Source of the DNA: a virus
Lineage: Duplodnaviria; Heunggongvirae; Uroviricota; Caudoviricetes
Strand: one strand, 5' to 3'
Length of the DNA stretch: 28,769 nucleotides
Virus record (IMG/VR): IMGVR_UViG_2529292720_000011
Shown in pieces: positions 1-11,694 of this stretch; position 1 is the first letter of the stretch, and each line of letters starts with the position of its first letter. The position numbers and the translations under genes are program-made. Below the pieces are notes generated by a model. That model was not told the DNA's origin. It ran no database searches and saw only the letters and a program-made list of their open reading frames with translations.

Positions 1-1002
1 TTACCCTCTATTGTCAAAAGGGTTCAATTCAACAGCAGCCTCTAAATGACCTGGAGCAAAATGCGCATAACGCATAGTCATTTTTATATCGCTATGCCCC
101 AGTATTTTTTGCAACACAAGAATATTTCCGCCCCGCATCATAAAATGACTGGCAAACGTGTGACGTAGCACATGAGTTAATTGCCCATCAGGAAGCTCGA
201 TCTTCGCTCTCTTAATTGCAGCGTCAAAAGCCTCATAACATGGTGAAAATAGCGCTCCTCGTTTTTTAGGAAGCATAGCCTGCAATTGAGGTGAAATCGG
301 TACAGTGCGGTTCTTCTTTCCTTTAGTTTTAACAAATGTGATTCGACCGGGCAGTACTTGAGATTGCTTTAATCCTTCTGCTTCACTCCACCGAGCACCA
401 GTCGCAAGCCCAATACGGACAACAACCCCCAAATCTTTATTCCGTGACTCATCACACGCAATCAGAAGGCGTTCAATCTCATCTACATACAGAAACGCCA
501 GTTCCTTTTCTTCCTCACGAAACTTGCGAATACCAGTCAGGGGGTTTTCACCAGACCACTCCCCAAGGCGCTTCAGTTCGGCAAAAACAGCATGTAGATA
601 TGACTGCTCGCGATTAACGGTTGCTTCACTAAGTTTTTTCTTCCCCTTGGGATTCCATTCTCCTGATAGCCTTCTTTCCCGATAAGTAGCAAACATATTT
701 TTGTCAAACTGCGAAGCAAATGGATCTCCCAGCCTGGAACAAATCGCCTCAAGTTTGACTTTGCGCTCTGCACCAGAGGACAAGGTTTTACCGTACATCT
801 CAAACCAACGAGCAATCAACTCAGAAAGACGAGGACCAGAACCATCTTGAAACTCGTCTCCAACTCTACTATTCATTAAACGGCGCTCATAAGAGAGCGC
901 CTCACTTTTTGTCGCAAACTGTTTACGAATGCGTTTTCCCGATGCCCCGTAGGGATAACATTCGCAAAGCCATTTACCTGATGGAATCTTACGAACCGAC
1001 AT
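1..1002 (-). CDS. int: Tyrosine recombinase / phage integrase (P2-186 type)
   Basis: 333-aa ORF with the C-terminal catalytic signature HVLRHTFASHF...LGHSDIKMTMRYAH. It is the last gene of the minus-strand repressor operon, as in P2. The window starts at its stop codon. Confidence 0.95.
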   Translation of the reverse strand: MSVRKIPSGKWLCECYPYGASGKRIRKQFATKSEALSYERRLMNSRVGDEFQDGSGPRLSELIARWFEMYGKTLSSGAERKVKLEAICSRLGDPFASQFDKNMFATYRERRLSGEWNPKGKKKLSEATVNREQSYLHAVFAELKRLGEWSGENPLTGIRKFREEEKELAFLYVDEIERLLIACDESRNKDLGVVVRIGLATGARWSEAEGLKQSQVLPGRITFVKTKGKKNRTVPISPQLQAMLPKKRGALFSPCYEAFDAAIKRAKIELPDGQLTHVLRHTFASHFMMRGGNILVLQKILGHSDIKMTMRYAHFAPGHLEAAVELNPFDNRG

Positions 1003-5140: not shown

Positions 5141-5371
5141 ATGGCAAACCGCAAACAGCACCGCGCTATCGCGGAGCGTCGTCACATCCAGACTGAAATC
5201 AACCGCAGACTTTCCCGCGCATCACGCGTCGCGCAAATCATGCACATCAATATGCTGCATGAGCGTAGCTGCGAACTTTCAAACCTCTATTCATCCGCTG
5301 TTTTCAGTTATCTGGCGGATGATCTGCGCGAGCTTCAGCAGCTCATCCAGCAGCAAAACAAACTCCATTAA
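5141..5371 (+). CDS. Hypothetical early protein (76 aa, basic N-terminus)
   Basis: SD GAGG 8 nt upstream of the ATG. The product is a helical basic protein. Confidence 0.65.
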   Translation: MANRKQHRAIAERRHIQTEINRRLSRASRVAQIMHINMLHERSCELSNLYSSAVFSYLADDLRELQQLIQQQNKLH

Positions 5372-5815: not shown

Positions 5816-8623
5816 ATGACGGCAGAGTACATCAGGGACTGGCAGCAACCGCGCCACGCAGTGGGGCGTGAAGGAACGGGGATCCCCGCTCCTGAATCCG
5901 CGCTTTCCTCCTGGCTGGATGCCTACCGGGCAGAGAACGAGCGCTGCCAGGAAATGGCTGATGCGGCGTTCTCCGCCACGCCGCTGGGCAACCTGATTAA
6001 TAAAAGCCTGGACGCACAGGAAAAACAGGACAAAACCATCACACTGGCAGGAGACGCCAGAAAGCAGGTACGCGGCGCGGTGGATGAAGCCATGGCCTCG
6101 CTGCGCCTGCTGCCATCCTATCTGCGCGATCCGCTTATTCGCCACCTCTCCTTCCTGCGCAAAAAACAGGAATCTGACCGCCAGAAAGGTAAAAAGAACC
6201 AGCAGGCTGAACGCTACGCGCGCGGGACCCTGCGCAAAATATTCGAACGTCTGGATCGCACTGACGGGCGCTGGCTGACACCGGGTTATCGCTCCCTTGC
6301 CGGGCGCGAACGCCTGGACGATTTGCTTTCCCTGCCGCAGCTCAACAAGCACCAGATACAGACGCTGGCCACCATGACGGCGGCGATGTTCAGCAGCACC
6401 TTCGAAACACTCTGCGATGGCTTTGGTGCCAGAGATGGCGAGCTGACCATGGATGTAATGTTGAAGGCTTACCGGATGCTGGCCCGTATCGCATTACGCC
6501 TGCACATCATGCCGCCACATTACGAAGCCCTGAACAAGAGCGATCCGGATACGGAACTGTTACCGGGCGCAATCCTTCGCCTGACCTGTGCGGAATGGTG
6601 GAAACGCAAATTGTGGCTGTTACGTTGCGAGTGGAGAGAAGAACAACTCCGCGCCGCCTGTCTGGTTTCCAGAAAAACATCACCCTATCTGAGCCAGGAC
6701 GCGTTAAGCGAGTTTCGCGCACAGCGCGAGAAAACACGCGATTTCCTGAAAAGTTTCATGCTGGAAAACGAAGACGGGTTCACGATTGATCTCGAGACAG
6801 TGTATTACGCGGGAGTAAGTAACCCGGTTCACCGTAAGGCAGAAATGATGGCCACCATGAAGGGGCTGGAACTTCTGGCCGAAGCCCGTGGCGACAAAGC
6901 GGTGTTTCTGACTGTCACCTGCCCGTCAAAATACCACGCCACAACAGAGAACGGTCATCCGAATCCCAAATGGAACGGGGCCACCATGCGCGACTCCAGC
7001 GATTACCTGGTTAACACGTTTTTTGCGGCGGTCCGCAAGAAACTGAACCGCGACGGCCTGCGCTGGTATGGCATCCGCACGGTGGAGCCTCACCATGACG
7101 GCACCGTGCACTGGCATATGATGGTCTTTGCACATCCGGACGAGATTGAAACCATCGTGTCCCACGTCTGCGATATTGCCATTCAGGAAGACCGCCACGA
7201 GCTGGGCGATGACATAACTCCGCGTTTTAAGGCGGAGTACGTAGACGGCTCAAAAGGCACACCAACCAGCTACATCGCCACCTACATCGGAAAGAACCTG
7301 GACAGCCGCGCCGTGGATGGCATCGACCAGAAAACGGGCAAGCCACGCGTTGACCACGAAACCGGAAAATCAATGGCCGAGAGCGTGGAACGCGCCATCG
7401 GCTGGGCGCGCCTTCACCGGGTCCGCCAGTTCCAGTTCTTTGGCATCCCCTCCCGTCAGGTGTGGCGTGAACTCCGCCGCCTTGCCAGCCAGATGGCACG
7501 CAACCCGGAAGGCCCGCAACGGCTGAAGGATGACGCAATGGATGCGGTACTCGCTGCCGCTGATGCAGGATGTTTTGCCACCTACATAGAGAAACAGGGC
7601 GGCGTACTTGTTCCACGCAAAGACTACCTGATTCGCACCGCCTACGACCTCGCCGATGAGCTGAACGATTACGGCGAACAGAGCGTACAGATTTACGGGA
7701 TCTGGTCACCACTCATCGGGGAATCCTCCCGTGTGTGCACGCATCCGGATAACTGGAAGCTGGTAAGACGCAAACCGGAAGCGGAAGACAGCGCCCGCGA
7801 AAATGGTTTTGACCTTCAGGGCGGCCCTGCCGCCCCTTGGACTCGTGGCAATAACTGTCCCCGTGTACAGGAAACAGGCAACAGCGGGACAGAACAGTCG
7901 AAAGAACGGCCAGCACCGTGGCCGCAGCTTCCTGACGGCGTTGAAGTGAACGAATGGATGCGCTCACTGAAACGGCACGAACGCCGGGCGCTGATGCGTT
8001 CGCTTCGTGACAAACAGGTAAAAAACAGCAGTGATGAAATGCAGAGCTGGACACAGAGCCGCAAACAGCAGCGGCCTTTGCCTGATAACCACGAATTACT
8101 CGCTAAAGAATGGCGGGAGTCTGCCGAATCTCTCGGCCTGCATATCGGTGAACAGCAGATGCAGCACCTGCTACGGGGCGGCAGCCTGTACGTTGACGGC
8201 AGCATCATTGCACCGCAGGGATATGAAATTGTACGCAAACCGGATACCCGCCCGGACAGCCGAATCACGCAGCTCTGGCAGCACCTGAGCCGTAATCACG
8301 GCGTAAGCAGCACGGAGATCCGCCATAACCCGGTCGCCAGCTATCTGGCACAGCTGGGGGCATCAGACCCCGAAGCCGCCGCACGCCTGGCATCCGCACT
8401 TCAGCAGGATCAGAACACCATGAAAACACCCGTTACCGTGCTTTCTGACATGCTGCGCGCCATCCGCGACGCAGAGCACGCACAGAGAATCAGTGAAACC
8501 ACTGAACGCGCCAGCCGCAAAGCAGACCTGCTGCAGGGTGGCCTGACCAGTGGAAACAAAAAACAGACAGAAACGGGATCCACAAATCCCGTAAATGAGC
8601 AAAAAACGCGCCGCGATATATGA
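5816..8623 (+). CDS. A: Replication initiation endonuclease, P2 gpA family (HUH rolling-circle initiator)
   Basis: 935 aa. It has the HUH-type motif VEPHHDGTVHWHMMVF and the catalytic Tyr motif SYIATYIGKN, typical of P2/186 A. The C-terminal ~230 aa is a charged, low-complexity extension beyond P2 A, which I recall as ~761 aa. Confidence 0.9.
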   Translation: MTAEYIRDWQQPRHAVGREGTGIPAPESALSSWLDAYRAENERCQEMADAAFSATPLGNLINKSLDAQEKQDKTITLAGDARKQVRGAVDEAMASLRLLPSYLRDPLIRHLSFLRKKQESDRQKGKKNQQAERYARGTLRKIFERLDRTDGRWLTPGYRSLAGRERLDDLLSLPQLNKHQIQTLATMTAAMFSSTFETLCDGFGARDGELTMDVMLKAYRMLARIALRLHIMPPHYEALNKSDPDTELLPGAILRLTCAEWWKRKLWLLRCEWREEQLRAACLVSRKTSPYLSQDALSEFRAQREKTRDFLKSFMLENEDGFTIDLETVYYAGVSNPVHRKAEMMATMKGLELLAEARGDKAVFLTVTCPSKYHATTENGHPNPKWNGATMRDSSDYLVNTFFAAVRKKLNRDGLRWYGIRTVEPHHDGTVHWHMMVFAHPDEIETIVSHVCDIAIQEDRHELGDDITPRFKAEYVDGSKGTPTSYIATYIGKNLDSRAVDGIDQKTGKPRVDHETGKSMAESVERAIGWARLHRVRQFQFFGIPSRQVWRELRRLASQMARNPEGPQRLKDDAMDAVLAAADAGCFATYIEKQGGVLVPRKDYLIRTAYDLADELNDYGEQSVQIYGIWSPLIGESSRVCTHPDNWKLVRRKPEAEDSARENGFDLQGGPAAPWTRGNNCPRVQETGNSGTEQSKERPAPWPQLPDGVEVNEWMRSLKRHERRALMRSLRDKQVKNSSDEMQSWTQSRKQQRPLPDNHELLAKEWRESAESLGLHIGEQQMQHLLRGGSLYVDGSIIAPQGYEIVRKPDTRPDSRITQLWQHLSRNHGVSSTEIRHNPVASYLAQLGASDPEAAARLASALQQDQNTMKTPVTVLSDMLRAIRDAEHAQRISETTERASRKADLLQGGLTSGNKKQTETGSTNPVNEQKTRRDI

Positions 8624-8668
8624 AGCGCGCACAAAACAGGCGAAAGCGGGATTTAAAAATCCCGTAAA
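8573..8668. promoter_or_regulatory. Two palindrome-containing sites sharing AAATCCCGTAAA (candidate parC-like ParR sites / parM promoter)
   Basis: ACGGGAT-N6-ATCCCGTAAA lies at 8573-8595, inside the 3' end of A. CGGGATTT-AA-AAATCCCGTAAA lies at 8647-8668. The 12-nt cores are 73 bp apart, directly upstream of parM. Confidence 0.4.
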
Positions 8669-8699
8669 CGGTTAATTAACCAACATAAGGAAAATCGAC

Positions 8700-9659
8700 A
8701 TGAAAATTTGTATCGACGACGGCTCCACCAACATCAAGCTGGCATGGACTGAGAACGGCGAACGCCGCAACGCCATCAGCCCGAACAGCTTCAAGTCGGA
8801 ATGGTCTGCGCCGTTCGGTGGCACGCATCCCGCGAACTACATGCTTGATGGCGTGCGCTATGGCTTTGATCCGGTCAGCGATCGTTTTGTCCAGACGACT
8901 GACACGCAATACCAGTACAGCGATGTGAATGTAATCGCCATTCATCACGCGCTGGTCAAATCAGGCATCACGCCACAGGAGGTGGATGTGGTTGTCACCC
9001 TGCCACTGAGCGAGTATTTCGACACAAACGCACAGCCGGACATGGCCAACATCAACCGCAAAAAAGCGAACGTCATGCGCCCGGTGGAGTACCAGAACGG
9101 CGAAGCATTCACTATCCGTAACGTACGGGTTATGCCTGAATCCATTCCGGCTGGCTTTAAGGCACTGGCTGACATGAGTCCGTTTGAATCCCTGCTGATT
9201 GTGGATTTGGGCGGAACCACGCTGGATGTGGCAAAGGTTCAGGGGCAGCTGGCAGGTATCAGCCAGGTGTTTTGCGATCCAAACGTAGGCGTTTCCCTGA
9301 TGGCTGATGCCGTGCTGTCGGTGATGGCCACTAACGGTATGCGTACCAGTCACCACATCGCCAATACCATTATTGAGCACCGTCACGATGAAGCCTGGCT
9401 GCGCCAGCACATTCACAATGACGCGCATTACAACAGCCTGATGGCGGTTATTCGTGAAAAGGAGGAGACACTGAAACAACGAGTGATCCGCGCGCTGGCG
9501 GGTTTTTCCGGTTACGGGCGGGTGATGGTTGTCGGTGGAGGGGCGGAGATTGTGGCACCCGCTATCCGCGAAGCCTGCGGAGTTAATGCGACTTTCATCG
9601 CGGACGGGGTGCCACAGTTTGCTCTGGTTAATGGGCTGTACGCAATGAACAAGGAGTAA
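8700..9659 (+). CDS. parM: Actin-like plasmid segregation ATPase ParM (StbA family)
   Basis: 319 aa, colinear with plasmid R1 ParM as I recall it. Shared blocks: IDDGSTNIKL, ISPNSFK.EW, QYSDVNV.A.HHAL, VMPESIPAG, DSLLI.DLGGTTLD, VMV.GGGAE, LVNG.Y. Confidence 0.9.
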   Translation: MKICIDDGSTNIKLAWTENGERRNAISPNSFKSEWSAPFGGTHPANYMLDGVRYGFDPVSDRFVQTTDTQYQYSDVNVIAIHHALVKSGITPQEVDVVVTLPLSEYFDTNAQPDMANINRKKANVMRPVEYQNGEAFTIRNVRVMPESIPAGFKALADMSPFESLLIVDLGGTTLDVAKVQGQLAGISQVFCDPNVGVSLMADAVLSVMATNGMRTSHHIANTIIEHRHDEAWLRQHIHNDAHYNSLMAVIREKEETLKQRVIRALAGFSGYGRVMVVGGGAEIVAPAIREACGVNATFIADGVPQFALVNGLYAMNKE

Positions 9660-9663
9660 ACCA

Positions 9664-9975
9664 ATGACGACACCAACCAGAAGAATAAGTTTCTATCTGA
9701 AGCCAGCTGCCGTCAAGAACGAAGGAGAAGCATGCGCATGGCTGGACAGCCTTACACCAGAAGCCCGCAAAAGCGGCCAACGCGTGGCTTTTCTGGCCGG
9801 GCTGGCACTTCTGAAGACGAATCCGGCAGAGGCTTACCGACTGGCCGCATGGGCTGATGATGAGATGTTACCTGTGACACAAATCAGCTCAAAAAAGTTT
9901 GAAGCACAGTCTGCACCAGTGGCTAAGATAACCAGCCAGATGGCTGGGAATATCCGGGCGTTATTTCCTGGGTAA
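9664..9975 (+). CDS. parR: ParR-like centromere-binding adaptor
   Basis: 103 aa. RRISFYLKP...ACAWLDSLTPEARKSGQRVAFLAGLALLKTNP parallels R1 ParR RRTIAFKLNP...LDSIPQGERSRLNRAALTAGLALYRQDP (from memory). SD AAGGAG. It directly follows parM. Confidence 0.75.
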   Translation: MTTPTRRISFYLKPAAVKNEGEACAWLDSLTPEARKSGQRVAFLAGLALLKTNPAEAYRLAAWADDEMLPVTQISSKKFEAQSAPVAKITSQMAGNIRALFPG

Positions 9976-10095
9976 AAGCATCTGCGCGAAAAATGCTCAC
10001 ATTTATAGAAACAGTATCATTCCATTTGGCGCACTTACTTCAATAATCGATCTGTTAAACAAATAGATTGTCTATTATCTATCGATTAAAACGAT

Positions 10096-10160
10096 CAATT
10101 ATCTTGACAGTAATGTGCCTTTTTGTAAGATCGTTCGCATTGTGAGCGACAAGATAATTG
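10096..10160 (+). promoter_or_regulatory. Sigma70-type promoter bracketed by a perfect 11-bp inverted repeat (operator pair)
   Basis: TTGACA (10104-10109), 16-nt spacer, TAAGAT (10126-10131). CAATTATCTTG (10096-10106) is the exact reverse complement of CAAGATAATTG (10150-10160). An AT-rich dyad with ATCGAT sites lies upstream at 10042-10090. Confidence 0.55.
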
Positions 10161-10175
10161 CGCGGCATTGTCCAT

Positions 10176-10272
10176 GCAAAACGCCCCAATAGCAGCAACT
10201 ATTGGGGCGTAGAACTCGGTCGGACTCACTTAACCTGATATGCGTGCCTTCCGAAGTAAATCAAAATGTGCG
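10176..10272 (-). ncRNA. Candidate ~95-nt antisense small RNA
   Basis: Minus-strand promoter: TTTACA (10307-10302), 17-nt spacer, TAAAAT (10284-10279). A 12-bp GC-rich hairpin follows (10210-10199 pairs with 10192-10181, loop of 6) and then TTTTG. The whole RNA is complementary to the leader of the 89-aa gene. Confidence 0.4.
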
Positions 10273-10318
10273 TCGTATATTTTATTGCTTACACGCACCT
10301 CTGTAAAGGCACGCATAT
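10238..10318. repeat. Nested perfect inverted repeat in the leader of the 89-aa gene
   Basis: ATATGCGTGCCTT (10238-10250) pairs with AAGGCACGCATAT (10306-10318). These enclose GTGCGT (10268-10273) and ACGCAC (10293-10298). The right arm ends 10 nt before the SD GAGG (10328-10331). Confidence 0.7.
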
Positions 10319-10339
10319 TTTTCCTATGAGGTAAATAAA

Positions 10340-10609
10340 GTGCGGGCTAAAACAGGTATTTGCAAGAACCCTCATCGTTATAACCCAACATTTCTGTCTC
10401 TCCCTGAATATCAAGGACAAGAAGGTCGGCACAAATGCGCTGCCTGTGCTTTTGAGCTAGGCATAAAAGATGCGCTTGAAGGACGCGCTATGGCTCAGAA
10501 TGATTTAGTTTTAGCTAACATTCCGTTTAGCCAGGCTGGAACTGTAAGGCACAGAGATGCTTATGAAGCATATGTTAGTGGTTGGCGATTAATACACAGC
10601 AACAATTGA
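10340..10609 (+). CDS. Orphan 89-aa Cys/His-containing protein
   Basis: GTG start with SD GAGG 8 nt upstream. The product contains ICKNPHRYNP...GRHKCAACAFELG, a possible metal-binding cluster. It is followed by a strong terminator. I recognise no family. Confidence 0.6.
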   Translation: MRAKTGICKNPHRYNPTFLSLPEYQGQEGRHKCAACAFELGIKDALEGRAMAQNDLVLANIPFSQAGTVRHRDAYEAYVSGWRLIHSNN

Positions 10610-10617
10610 TATTTTTG

Positions 10618-10641
10618 AAGCGCCGATAAGGCGCTTTTTTT
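10618..10641 (+). terminator. Rho-independent terminator
   Basis: AAGCGCC-GATAA-GGCGCTT followed by a T run, 9 nt after the stop of the 89-aa ORF. Confidence 0.85.
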
Positions 10642-10871
10642 GTTTGCACGATAGTGCACAAGTTTGCACAATTTTTTTGAACGACTTTTTGTACTTCCGG
10701 CCCGCGTGGCGGCTGGATCCGTCAAGGATCCGTACGTGCACAAAAAACGCGTTTTTTCTACGCGCAGGTGACGGGGGAACAGCCCGCGTTTCAGGGGGTA
10801 AATAGCATTCCCTGAACGATGTCGCAGAGACACAACAGAATGGCCATATTTCTCACGCTGAGCATGAAAAA

Positions 10872-10910
10872 GGCGTGAGGGCTTTTGATTTGATGGGGGG
10901 AAAGGTAAGG
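10872..10910. other. Candidate cos (cohesive end) region
   Basis: GGCGTGAGGGCTTTTGATTTGATGGGGGGAAAGGTAAGG contains both halves of the P2/186 19-nt cohesive end (GGCG[A/T]GGCGGGGAAAGCA[C/T], from memory), separated by about 13 extra nt. It lies in a ~500-bp non-coding stretch upstream of the packaging genes. Confidence 0.3.
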
Positions 10911-11169
10911 CCGTCAAAATCGCACTGAGGCAGCGAGAACATACAGTCAACGTGGTGGGATTGCGTAAGAGTCTGACCGTCGATGGTGGCGATAAACTGG
11001 AAGGCGTCGTGAAATTATCTGATTGATACAGGAGCTGGAGAGTCGGGGCATAAATTTTTTATGCCCCGGCGAAGCAGCAGACAAGCGAAGCGCGTCAGCG
11101 ATACGGCACCTTGCCGACCATACTTCGTAAGTGCAAAATACGAGCAAAGAAATCAATGGAGGCTGTCTT

Positions 11170-11694
11170 ATGGTCATTAATTACAAGCAGTTAAGAGAAA
11201 AACGGGAGCAGGTAAAGGAGAGCTTTCGCCGCAATGAAGATCTGACCCCGCTTGTACGCCTTGCCCAGGGCATTGTTGATGCTTATGAAATCTCGCTGGA
11301 GCTGCCATCACAGACCTGGACAGATAGCGACGGTAATCGCCAGCATTACGTTTCATGCGGACTGGAAGCAGCCGAAGGATTTCGCAGAATGCCTTTATCT
11401 CAGATCCCTGCCGCTACCCCCAAAGCAAGGGGCGGCAATGATGAGCGAAAACTGATTTTCAGCATTGAGACAGTGGTTGACGACACACCTGGCGAAGTCG
11501 CCTTCGTGCATACTCCTCTTTCGATCGCAATGTATAACGATGAAATACAGGTTCGCGTTAATAATAATATCGTGCCACTTAAAGAAGGTAATTCACCCTA
11601 CACCACCGTTTGTGAAGCCATTCAATATTACGTTTTCTCTGAAATTGATAATCTCAAGCCTGACGGCACCCAGAAAATGGTTCAGCTCTGGTAA
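11170..11694 (+). CDS. Orphan 174-aa protein between the cos-like region and the portal gene
   Basis: ATG 11170 with SD GGAGG (11158-11162) 7 nt upstream. This is preferred over the track's GTG start at 11131. Possible promoter TTGCCG-17-CAAAAT at 11111-11139. It has its own terminator. No motif recognised. Confidence 0.65.
   Translation: MVINYKQLREKREQVKESFRRNEDLTPLVRLAQGIVDAYEISLELPSQTWTDSDGNRQHYVSCGLEAAEGFRRMPLSQIPAATPKARGGNDERKLIFSIETVVDDTPGEVAFVHTPLSIAMYNDEIQVRVNNNIVPLKEGNSPYTTVCEAIQYYVFSEIDNLKPDGTQKMVQLW

Follow-up and report, generated by a model that had tools for sequence, protein, structure and literature searches.

Convergent promoters predict a cis-antisense RNA over the leader of a small uncharacterized gene in a mobile prophage cassette

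In the tisB/istR-1, zorO/orzO, shoB/ohsC, and dinQ/agrB class of type I toxin-antitoxin (TA) loci, the toxin mRNA has a long 5' untranslated region (UTR) with a sequestered ribosome-binding site, and the small RNA (sRNA) is complementary to the leader well upstream of the Shine-Dalgarno (SD) sequence, not to the SD or the start codon (PMC4147584). For zorO and tisB, the resulting sRNA-mRNA duplex is a substrate of RNase III (PMC4147584). Here we analyze a locus with a similarly long predicted leader and a ribosome-binding site predicted to be sequestered, in the viral record IMGVR_UViG_2529292720_000011 of IMG/VR (a virus of the Caudoviricetes; the whole stretch of 28,769 nucleotides (nt) is called the window). 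The locus contains a gene for an 89-amino acid (aa) protein that we call X (GTG 10340-10609, plus strand; phrog_3941, function not known). The reading that we favor, to which we assign a probability of roughly 65%, is that one promoter, P(+), would produce a structured leader of ∼200 nt followed by X, that a convergent promoter, P(-), would produce an antisense RNA of ∼95 nt by which X is kept off, and that X is a zinc-binding protein linked to methylation.

The geometry of the predicted antisense RNA and its target resembles tisB/istR-1 or zorO/orzO more closely than symE/symR, because the antisense would lie upstream of a sequestered SD and not over it, whereas SymR overlaps the SD and start codon of symE (PMC4147584). 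The locus differs from the tisB/zorO class in two respects. The sRNAs of that class have a divergent neighboring promoter and short complementarity, whereas the X antisense would be fully cis-encoded from within the leader, and their toxins are hydrophobic peptides of <60 aa, whereas X is an 89-aa hydrophilic, basic protein. What the locus would share with symE/symR is a cis-antisense RNA that controls a larger, non-membrane protein. Placement of the locus with symE/symR, proposed when the DNA was read without database searches (the sequence-only reading), did not hold up, as X has no SymE/AbrB match in Pfam, the predicted antisense is clear of the SD and start codon, and no LexA (SOS) box was found in 9976-10340.

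Another prophage-borne small non-membrane protein under an sRNA is RalR, with RalA, of the rac prophage (PMC4041452). Unlike the X antisense, RalA is trans-encoded and is complementary to 16 nt that lie inside the coding region (PMC4041452, PMC4147584). X and RalR showed no sequence relationship, but no direct comparison of the two was made. RalR (Lar) was originally linked to the alleviation of restriction.

Convergent, overlapping promoters are known from IS10, in which a stable antisense RNA, RNA-OUT, limits translation of the sense mRNA, RNA-IN. RNA-OUT covers the RNA-IN start codon, the product is a transposase, and GATC sites in the sense promoter, pIN, couple expression to methylation. 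IS10 pIN/pOUT is the nearest parallel to P(+), which also bears GATC; a sensitivity of P(+) itself to methylation is hypothetical. The locus had also been likened to P22 sar/ant and P1 c4/ant, whose antisense RNAs are likewise phage-borne and have GC-rich hairpins as terminators. In Rfam this likeness is below threshold or absent: the terminator hairpin of the X locus (HP1, below) alone shows sub-threshold resemblance to the ctRNA_pGA1 and sar terminator hairpins (sar, RF00262, 22.0 bits against a gathering score of 43, hairpin only), and C4 antisense RNA (RF01695) has no match in the window at E <= 10. In Pfam, X has no ANT, AntA, or Bro-N domain.

Convergent promoters, antisense RNA, and leader structure

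The locus was compared with ∼30 diverged homologous loci, from which 26 distinct leader variants were used for the minus-strand promoter. By direct reading and by promoter and repeat scans, every sequence feature listed in the sequence-only reading was found in its place. P(+) is a predicted sigma-70 promoter on the plus strand (10104-10131), with -35 TTGACA (10104-10109), a 16-nt spacer, and -10 TAAGAT (10126-10131). P(-), predicted on the minus strand (10307-10279), has -35 TTTACA (10307-10302), a 17-nt spacer, and -10 TAAAAT (10284-10279). These two are the sole promoter-like sites that the promoter scan returned in 9600-11200.

Across the 26 leaders, the P(-) -35 element TTTACA is invariant and the spacer is 17 nt in 26/26; in the -10 element T1, A2, and T6 are invariant, positions 3-5 vary, and 10 different hexamers occur. 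This pattern of conservation is the signature of a putative sigma-70 promoter. Read on the plus strand, the -35 element forms the heptamer TGTAAAG, which lies 34-42 nt before the start codon in the leader variants (47 nt before it in L137). Gilliamella loci keep a variant of P(-) (TTTACT, 17 nt, TAGAAT), and the Klebsiella/Enterobacter/Citrobacter group, in which the protein is ∼48% identical, has another (TTTACA, 17 nt, CACAAT) together with a different minus-strand terminator that has a T6 run. P(+) is kept in at least 40 relatives as TTGAnn, 16-18 nt, TAnnAT, at a constant distance from TGTAAAG (137-143 nt upstream in relatives and 170 nt in the window type).

Starting ∼7 nt after the P(-) -10 element, a cis-antisense RNA of ∼97 nt is predicted on the minus strand from ∼10272 to ∼10176, with both ends set by the promoter and terminator. 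It would be complementary to the leader from ∼+39 to +135, and its predicted fold has an energy of -34.3 kcal/mol (z = -3.4 versus dinucleotide shuffles). The hairpin at its end, HP1 (10181-10192/10199-10210, minus strand), has a 12-bp GC-rich stem and a 6-nt loop, followed by TTTTG on the minus strand. Pairing is retained across 29 distinct homologous hairpins with very different stem sequences: 302 pairs are Watson-Crick, 7 are G·U only on the minus strand, and 1 is G·U only on the plus strand. When 23 of the sequences were aligned, 94% of the cells paired (73% in shuffles) and 41 were changed on both sides (12 in shuffles); such changes occur in 7/8 pairs, and 0/500 shuffles reach the covariation score. 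These are the compensatory hairpin changes that were sought across relatives, and RNAalifold on MAFFT alignments recovered HP1 alone. A U-rich tail follows HP1 on the minus strand (TTTTG in the window; TTTCCCTTATG or TTTTCCTATG in relatives), and the tail on the plus strand is A-rich. Because wobble pairs favor the minus strand 7:1 and the U-rich tail is found there alone, we assign HP1 to that strand, on which it is the predicted Rho-independent terminator of the antisense RNA.

The conserved promoters and covarying terminator support, in silico, the earlier claim that convergent promoters give rise to a ∼95-nt antisense RNA over the 5' half of the leader. They also predict the RNA feature of type I loci, a small RNA base-pairing with its partner mRNA, from a promoter and terminator opposite the leader. 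Taken at the level of sequence, the comparative evidence strongly supports an antisense-gated design.

The 5' leader of the X mRNA, with its start placed from the -10 element, is predicted at 10138-10339 (plus strand, ∼202 nt), and its fold has z = -4.1 versus dinucleotide shuffles. The leaders of most relatives have a conserved length of ∼166-174 nt, versus 202 nt in the window. A perfect 13-bp inverted repeat (10238-10250/10306-10318, plus strand) can form a long-range helix, within which a 6-bp repeat is nested (10268-10273/10293-10298, plus strand). As had been noted, the antisense would cover the left arm of the 13-bp repeat only, since 10238-10250 lies in the predicted target; the right arm (10306-10318) can alternatively pair towards the SD and GUG. 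Each subfamily has such a helix, with a different sequence (for example TTTACATGTGATCACC/GGTGATCTGTGTAAA in L005), and across subfamilies the 5' arm lies in the antisense-covered segment and the 3' arm overlaps or abuts the TGTAAAG/SD region.

The SD, GAGG (10328-10331, plus strand), is 8 nt before GTG and lies within a weak local hairpin, HP3. In relatives, HP3 lies between TGTAAAG and the start codon and buries the SD and often the AUG too. The plus-strand fold of HP3 is more stable than the minus-strand fold in 24/27 variants, with 40 G·U pairs, which fits a predicted structure of the mRNA. Both HP3 and the long-range helix come from folds of single sequences. When the antisense-covered segment was forced to be unpaired, the predicted accessibility of the SD/AUG fell in 36/41 leaders (mean 0.41 to 0.29). 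The predicted antisense RNA ends, at ∼10272, ∼56 nt short of the SD, so that the SD and start codon would be left uncovered.

We infer that both RNAs are made and that the antisense represses X. In the mechanism we propose, P(+) would transcribe the structured leader and X as far as the unit's own Rho-independent terminator (10617-10645, plus strand; 8-bp stem with 5 GC pairs, then a T-run), and P(-), inside the leader, would make the cis-antisense RNA ending at HP1. By pairing with the 5' half of the leader and leaving the SD and start codon free, the antisense would most likely keep X off post-transcriptionally. It could do so by occupying the upstream partner of the long-range helix, upon which the downstream arm would fold onto the SD and start codon, a refolding model to which the accessibility calculations lend weak support. 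Alternatively, the duplex could be an RNase III substrate, or the antisense could compete at a ribosome standby site; both routes have parallels in tisB/istR-1 and zorO/orzO (PMC4147584) and appear equally possible. Should the antisense RNA exist, it would be a conserved RNA element of prophages, absent from Rfam 15, that moves with its target gene among P2-like, lambdoid, and P22-like phages, and the cassette would offer a clean model for antisense control by refolding of a leader.

Two further repeats surround P(+). A perfect 11-bp inverted repeat, CAATTATCTTG/CAAGATAATTG (10096-10106/10150-10160), brackets the promoter and had been read as an operator pair. The repeat is present, and its arms are invariant among 36 near-identical copies, in which variation is too low to test either the repeat or selection on the open reading frame (ORF). 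By our own estimate, perfect inverted repeats are expected by chance in 800 nt at ∼0.08 for 11 bp, ∼0.02 for 12 bp, and ∼0.005 for 13 bp, which makes each of the three unlikely and places them, like the folding z-scores, above chance. An operator function has no comparative support, as the repeat is absent from L122-L126, the closest diverged relatives, which also follow parMR (see below) and share the surrounding promoter region. Just upstream of P(+), the repeat finder returned an imperfect 26-nt inverted repeat (arms 10043-10068/10077-10102, 73% complementary), whose sequence is common to the diverged P2-like relatives L122-L126 and holds GATC sites at 10049 and 10093. In one IMG/VR contig (L152), the region of promoter, leader, and hairpin upstream of X is partially duplicated in tandem, which gives a leader of ∼235 nt and a second, atypical hairpin.

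The X family and its restriction-modification setting

X had been described as an orphan, a view that profile methods overturned. X matches phrog_3941 (E 2e-48, unknown function), exhaustive HMMER searching returned 173 X-family representatives of 50%-identity clusters, and a profile search returned 1232 clusters at 90% identity, all unnamed or "hypothetical" and none with a Pfam domain. A word-indexed protein search with X alone had yielded 2 near-identical clusters, a false orphan signal that HMMER, tblastn, and the profile search corrected. X had no match in Pfam, NCBIfam, PADLOC, or the PDB sequences, and its AlphaFold2 model (predicted local distance difference test score, 92) had none among PDB folds. 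The literature was searched for X accessions, phrog_3941, CP-933T sRNAs, and small proteins of DpnII operons, with nothing relevant found.

The family consensus is C-x3-HRY...LP..QG..GRHKCxGCAYE.G...LP.SQAG.VRHK...AY.LGY. Among 48 homologues, H12, R30, G41, Q65, and R70 are invariant and C8, H31, C33, C36, S64, and H71 nearly so, with C8, H31, C33, and C36 at least 90% conserved. The Cys/His cluster pointed out in the sequence-only reading is therefore real and forms the conserved core of the family, in which C8, H12, C33, and C36 are probably a zinc site. X is hydrophilic and basic (isoelectric point 8.9, grand average of hydropathy -0.53, maximum 19-residue hydropathy 0.58), and no membrane segment was found by hydropathy. 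The X domain is also found fused to HNH_2, NOV_C, DndB, and WYL domains. Tandem duplications of the X domain in one polypeptide were seen in P0003 and P0237 (182-187 aa).

Genomic neighborhoods place X homologues in restriction-modification (R-M) operons. Counts were made for 80 loci with an X homologue in a species-representative genome collection, within a 3-kb radius. A D12-class (Dam-type) methyltransferase, a DpnII-family endonuclease, or an N6_N4 methyltransferase lies within 3 kb in 42/80 loci, and all three are present in 29. In these R-M operons, X is co-directional and tightly spaced, in several gene orders that include Dam-X-DpnII-N6N4 in 13 loci and Dam-DpnII-N6N4-X in 7, and a DndB-X fusion lies inside a Dam/DpnII-type operon. 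X homologues are in this way embedded co-directionally between or beside D12, DpnII, and N6_N4 genes, and we propose to group them as accessory genes of such operons. In an independent sample of metagenome contigs (L173-L178), a D12 methyltransferase gene is followed by an overlapping gene for a DUF6996/6997/7226 protein of 420-426 aa and then by X; this protein is probably an uncharacterized restriction endonuclease partner of the Dam-type methyltransferase. Because the DUF6996/6997/7226 loci also hold D12, the common denominator is the Dam-type methyltransferase and not one nuclease family. This R-M operon context was found outside the Enterobacterales and Orbales. The X copy in the window has no R-M neighbor, nor do the enteric and Gilliamella cassettes, whose hosts are Dam+.

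In the leaders of those enteric and Gilliamella cassettes (43 sequences), GATC is the commonest 4-nt palindrome, with 144 observed versus ∼35 expected. Its conserved positions in relatives are just upstream of the P(+) -35 element, at the P(+) -10 element, and at two places around P(-). The window has GATC at 10049, 10093, and 10129, three sites within 84 bp at P(+); the one at 10129-10132 overlaps the -10 element, and another is 8 nt upstream of the -35 element. GATC density inside the R-M operons was uninformative. Over the window as a whole, GATC is under-represented (68 versus 102 ± 10 expected).

From the membership of its relatives in Dam(D12)/DpnII-type operons, as accessory genes, and from the fusions to HNH, NOV_C, DndB, and WYL domains, X is most likely linked to DNA or to GATC methylation, by binding or regulation, and a membrane toxin is less likely. 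The R-M associations and the distribution of GATC in the leaders together suggest that X may read or regulate GATC sites and that its own expression may be methylation-sensitive. The R-M controller (C) proteins provide a partial likeness, in that X is a gene of ∼85 aa in a methyltransferase-endonuclease operon, often directly before the endonuclease gene. C proteins, however, have a helix-turn-helix (HTH) fold and C-box operators, whereas X matched neither an HTH nor any other family in Pfam and no fold in the PDB, and its operon position varies.

We offer, as speculation that we consider unlikely, that X represents a new class of small zinc-binding proteins that read GATC sites or sense whether these are methylated, which would act as a non-HTH controller in R-M operons, as a nuclease-targeting domain in fusions, and as a doubly gated, stand-alone moron in temperate phages of Dam+ Enterobacterales. 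If so, X in R-M operons could, for example, delay restriction until methylation of the GATC sites is in place, and the fused domain would target HNH and PD-(D/E)XK nucleases. Stand-alone phage X would then be gated by Dam-sensitive promoters with conserved GATC sites and by a dedicated, previously undescribed cis-antisense RNA. Under-methylated DNA, either from an invader or newly replicated, could in this way be sensed by the prophage, which would answer with exclusion, anti-restriction, or control of replication. The X family (>1,200 clusters at 90% identity, all "hypothetical") is a regular but unnoticed part of Dam/DpnII-type operons; knowledge of what it does could reveal a novel type of accessory or controller protein of R-M systems and could explain its tightly controlled carriage by temperate phages of Dam+ hosts.

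Evidence against the antisense-gated, methylation-linked reading, and its alternatives

Several observations count against this reading of the locus. In the window alone, the 2 promoter-like sites are at chance level (2.2 ± 1.5 expected from shuffles), so that the promoters are not significant by themselves and take their weight from the relatives. Even there, TGTAAAG pairs with CUUUAYA beside the start codon in many relatives, and its conservation may be partly structural and not purely that of a -35 element. The minus-strand U-tract of HP1 is short or interrupted in many relatives. RNAalifold on the MAFFT alignment gave no consensus for HP3; in the window HP3 is weak, and masking changes the predicted SD accessibility of the window's own leader little (0.55 to 0.47). 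GATC occurs at P(+) but not at P(-) in the window type, and X is tied to GATC purely by association. Finally, the literature search yielded no report of a transcript, protein, or phenotype for the cassette locus.

The alternative that survives best, which we regard as unlikely but worth taking seriously, is that the cassette is a true type I TA or abortive-infection module, in which X is toxic, for example as a nuclease or by blocking DNA, the antisense is a labile antitoxin, and the cell is killed or arrested on phage attack or prophage loss. Its architecture is that of type I loci whose long 5' UTR is bound by the antitoxin at a distance from a sequestered SD (PMC4147584), and the cassette lies in defense-cargo hotspots under a tight dual control that suggests costly expression. 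The typical type I toxin is a small hydrophobic membrane peptide, unlike X, which is hydrophilic and lacks a membrane segment (19-residue hydropathy at most 0.58); SymE and RalR, however, are non-membrane type I toxins (PMC4147584, PMC4041452). Against toxicity, X has no PADLOC match, and its homologues are ordinary co-directional genes of R-M operons (antisense control was neither searched for nor seen there), which would be unexpected of a lethal protein. With the RNA half predicted in silico and the usual toxin type not found, membership of the cassette in type I TA systems cannot be claimed.

A cis-acting antisense also has to be weighed against an RNA that acts mainly in trans, as a prophage sRNA on host or rival-phage mRNAs, with its overlap of the X leader incidental. 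The terminator hairpin is flanked by U-rich stretches, as in Hfq-binding sRNAs, and one large subfamily keeps the 5' segment GAGAUCUCAAGAAAACAUUC. Between subfamilies, however, the sequence of the RNA body is not conserved, whereas the RNA keeps its promoter, its terminator, and its placement with respect to X. Because position is kept while sequence is not, we favor a cis-acting role. The element is always beside the X gene in the loci examined, and no Rfam 15 family matches the predicted antisense RNA of the window or the leaders of 18 relatives. A primarily trans-acting sRNA is, in our judgment, improbable.

We consider it very improbable that there is no functional antisense and that HP1 and the inverted repeats work solely at the level of DNA or of the plus strand, as a parMR terminator or attenuator or as protein-binding palindromes. 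HP1 is downstream of parR in the window, and GATC-rich palindromes could be protein sites. In addition, the HP1 loop occurs in both orientations on near-identical stems (CGGCAA versus TTGCCG; L006 versus L132, and L021 versus L165), which is the behavior of a DNA palindrome and looks like inversion by template switching within it. A terminator or attenuator on the plus strand is, however, hard to reconcile with the 7:1 bias of wobble pairs toward the minus strand and with the finding that no relative has a plus-strand U-tract. HP1 is always downstream of P(+) within the leader, also in phages without parMR, and the invariant TTTACA, 17 nt, TAnnnT would be hard to explain otherwise.

That X is an antirepressor or induction modulator like 186 Tum, P22 Ant, or P1 Ant, checked by an antisense RNA as antirepressors are by sar and c4, is scarcely credible: the map position is indeed that of tum in phage 186, as the sequence-only reading had it, but X and Tum are not similar (no BLASTP alignment at E <= 100; hhalign probability 0.1), there is no LexA box, no Ant/Bro domain in Pfam, and no sar or C4 match above the Rfam gathering score, and the cassette is found in unrelated phage types with different repressors, with homologues in non-phage R-M operons.

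The cassette as prophage cargo

The window is a P2-like prophage whose closest phage records belong to the Peduoviridae, genus Xuanwuvirus. From one end it holds an integrase gene (1-1002, minus strand), early genes, the gene for replication protein A (5816-8623), and genes for a ParM/StbA actin-like ATPase (8700-9659) and a ParR/StbB protein (9664-9975). The 364 bp between parR and 10340 are non-coding and hold the regulatory region described above; after the cassette come an ORF of 174/187 aa and the portal gene (minus strand). The best explanation of 10043-10645 is a cargo cassette of prophages (a "moron") that is self-contained and moves horizontally.

DNA at 95-100% identity to 9976-10660 is present in 166/5426 complete E. 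coli genomes, so that this exact cassette variant occurs in ∼3% of them, O157:H7 and O111 strains included. We considered whether these copies belong to phage-plasmids and rejected this, as all 172 places are chromosomal and there was no match in plasmid DNA. The parMR pair was matched in 1303/5426 E. coli genomes (1449/1451 places on chromosomes), against 166 genomes with the cassette, and the same flanks hold differing cargo, as in a cargo hotspot. Other E. coli prophages have in the parR-to-portal slot genes for an HTH protein and a PIN-domain protein (L169), a hypothetical gene and a DUF4760 gene (L170), or three small genes, one of the XF1762 family (L171). The cassette is one of many alternative cargos of this slot, and the claim of a variable-cargo hotspot (the tin/old position of P2-like phages) was borne out here. 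No defense-protein match in PADLOC-DB 2.0 was found for X, ParM, ParR, or the 187-aa neighbor ORF.

The same cassette, with its regulatory region, occurs in three moron sites: the A/parR-to-portal slot of P2-like phages, the lambdoid Q-to-lysis interval, and the site downstream of cI in P22-like phages. X homologues with 50-63% protein identity are solitary, self-terminated genes at such classic sites. In a Providencia phage and an Arsenophonus phage-plasmid they lie on the opposite strand between the Q antiterminator and lysis genes; in P22-like Salmonella phages they follow cI directly, and in other P2-like prophages they follow parMR.

The chromosomally integrated P2-like prophage keeps a plasmid-partition pair, ParM/StbA and ParR/StbB (8700-9975). 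Two copies of GGGATnnnnnATCCCGTAAA, seen by eye, stand directly upstream of parM (8575-8595 and 8649-8669), one of them within the 3' end of gene A, and are candidate parC/ParR-binding sites. The inverted repeat at 10043-10102 was also considered as a ParR centromere and judged less likely, the GGGATnnnnnATCCCGTAAA pair being in the usual parC position upstream of parM. Gene A encodes 935 aa, of which Pfam Phage_GPA spans residues 179-498 only, leaving a long C-terminal part without an assigned domain. On the other side of the cassette, the 174-aa ORF between it and the portal gene (11170-11694, plus strand) matches phrog_5091, which has no function assigned, and had no match in Pfam, NCBIfam, or PADLOC; a comparable hypothetical gene of 525-564 bp adjoins the portal gene in prophages with other cargo.

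In Arsenophonus apicola pArsBee3 (L007), isrK and C4 antisense RNA genes score above the Rfam gathering score at 5145-5328, ∼2 kb from the X cassette, and are unrelated to the X leader. In NC_049341 (phage 503458, L002), the portal, terminase, ParM, and X ORFs are split into fragments, which is consistent with frameshift errors of assembly rather than with biology.

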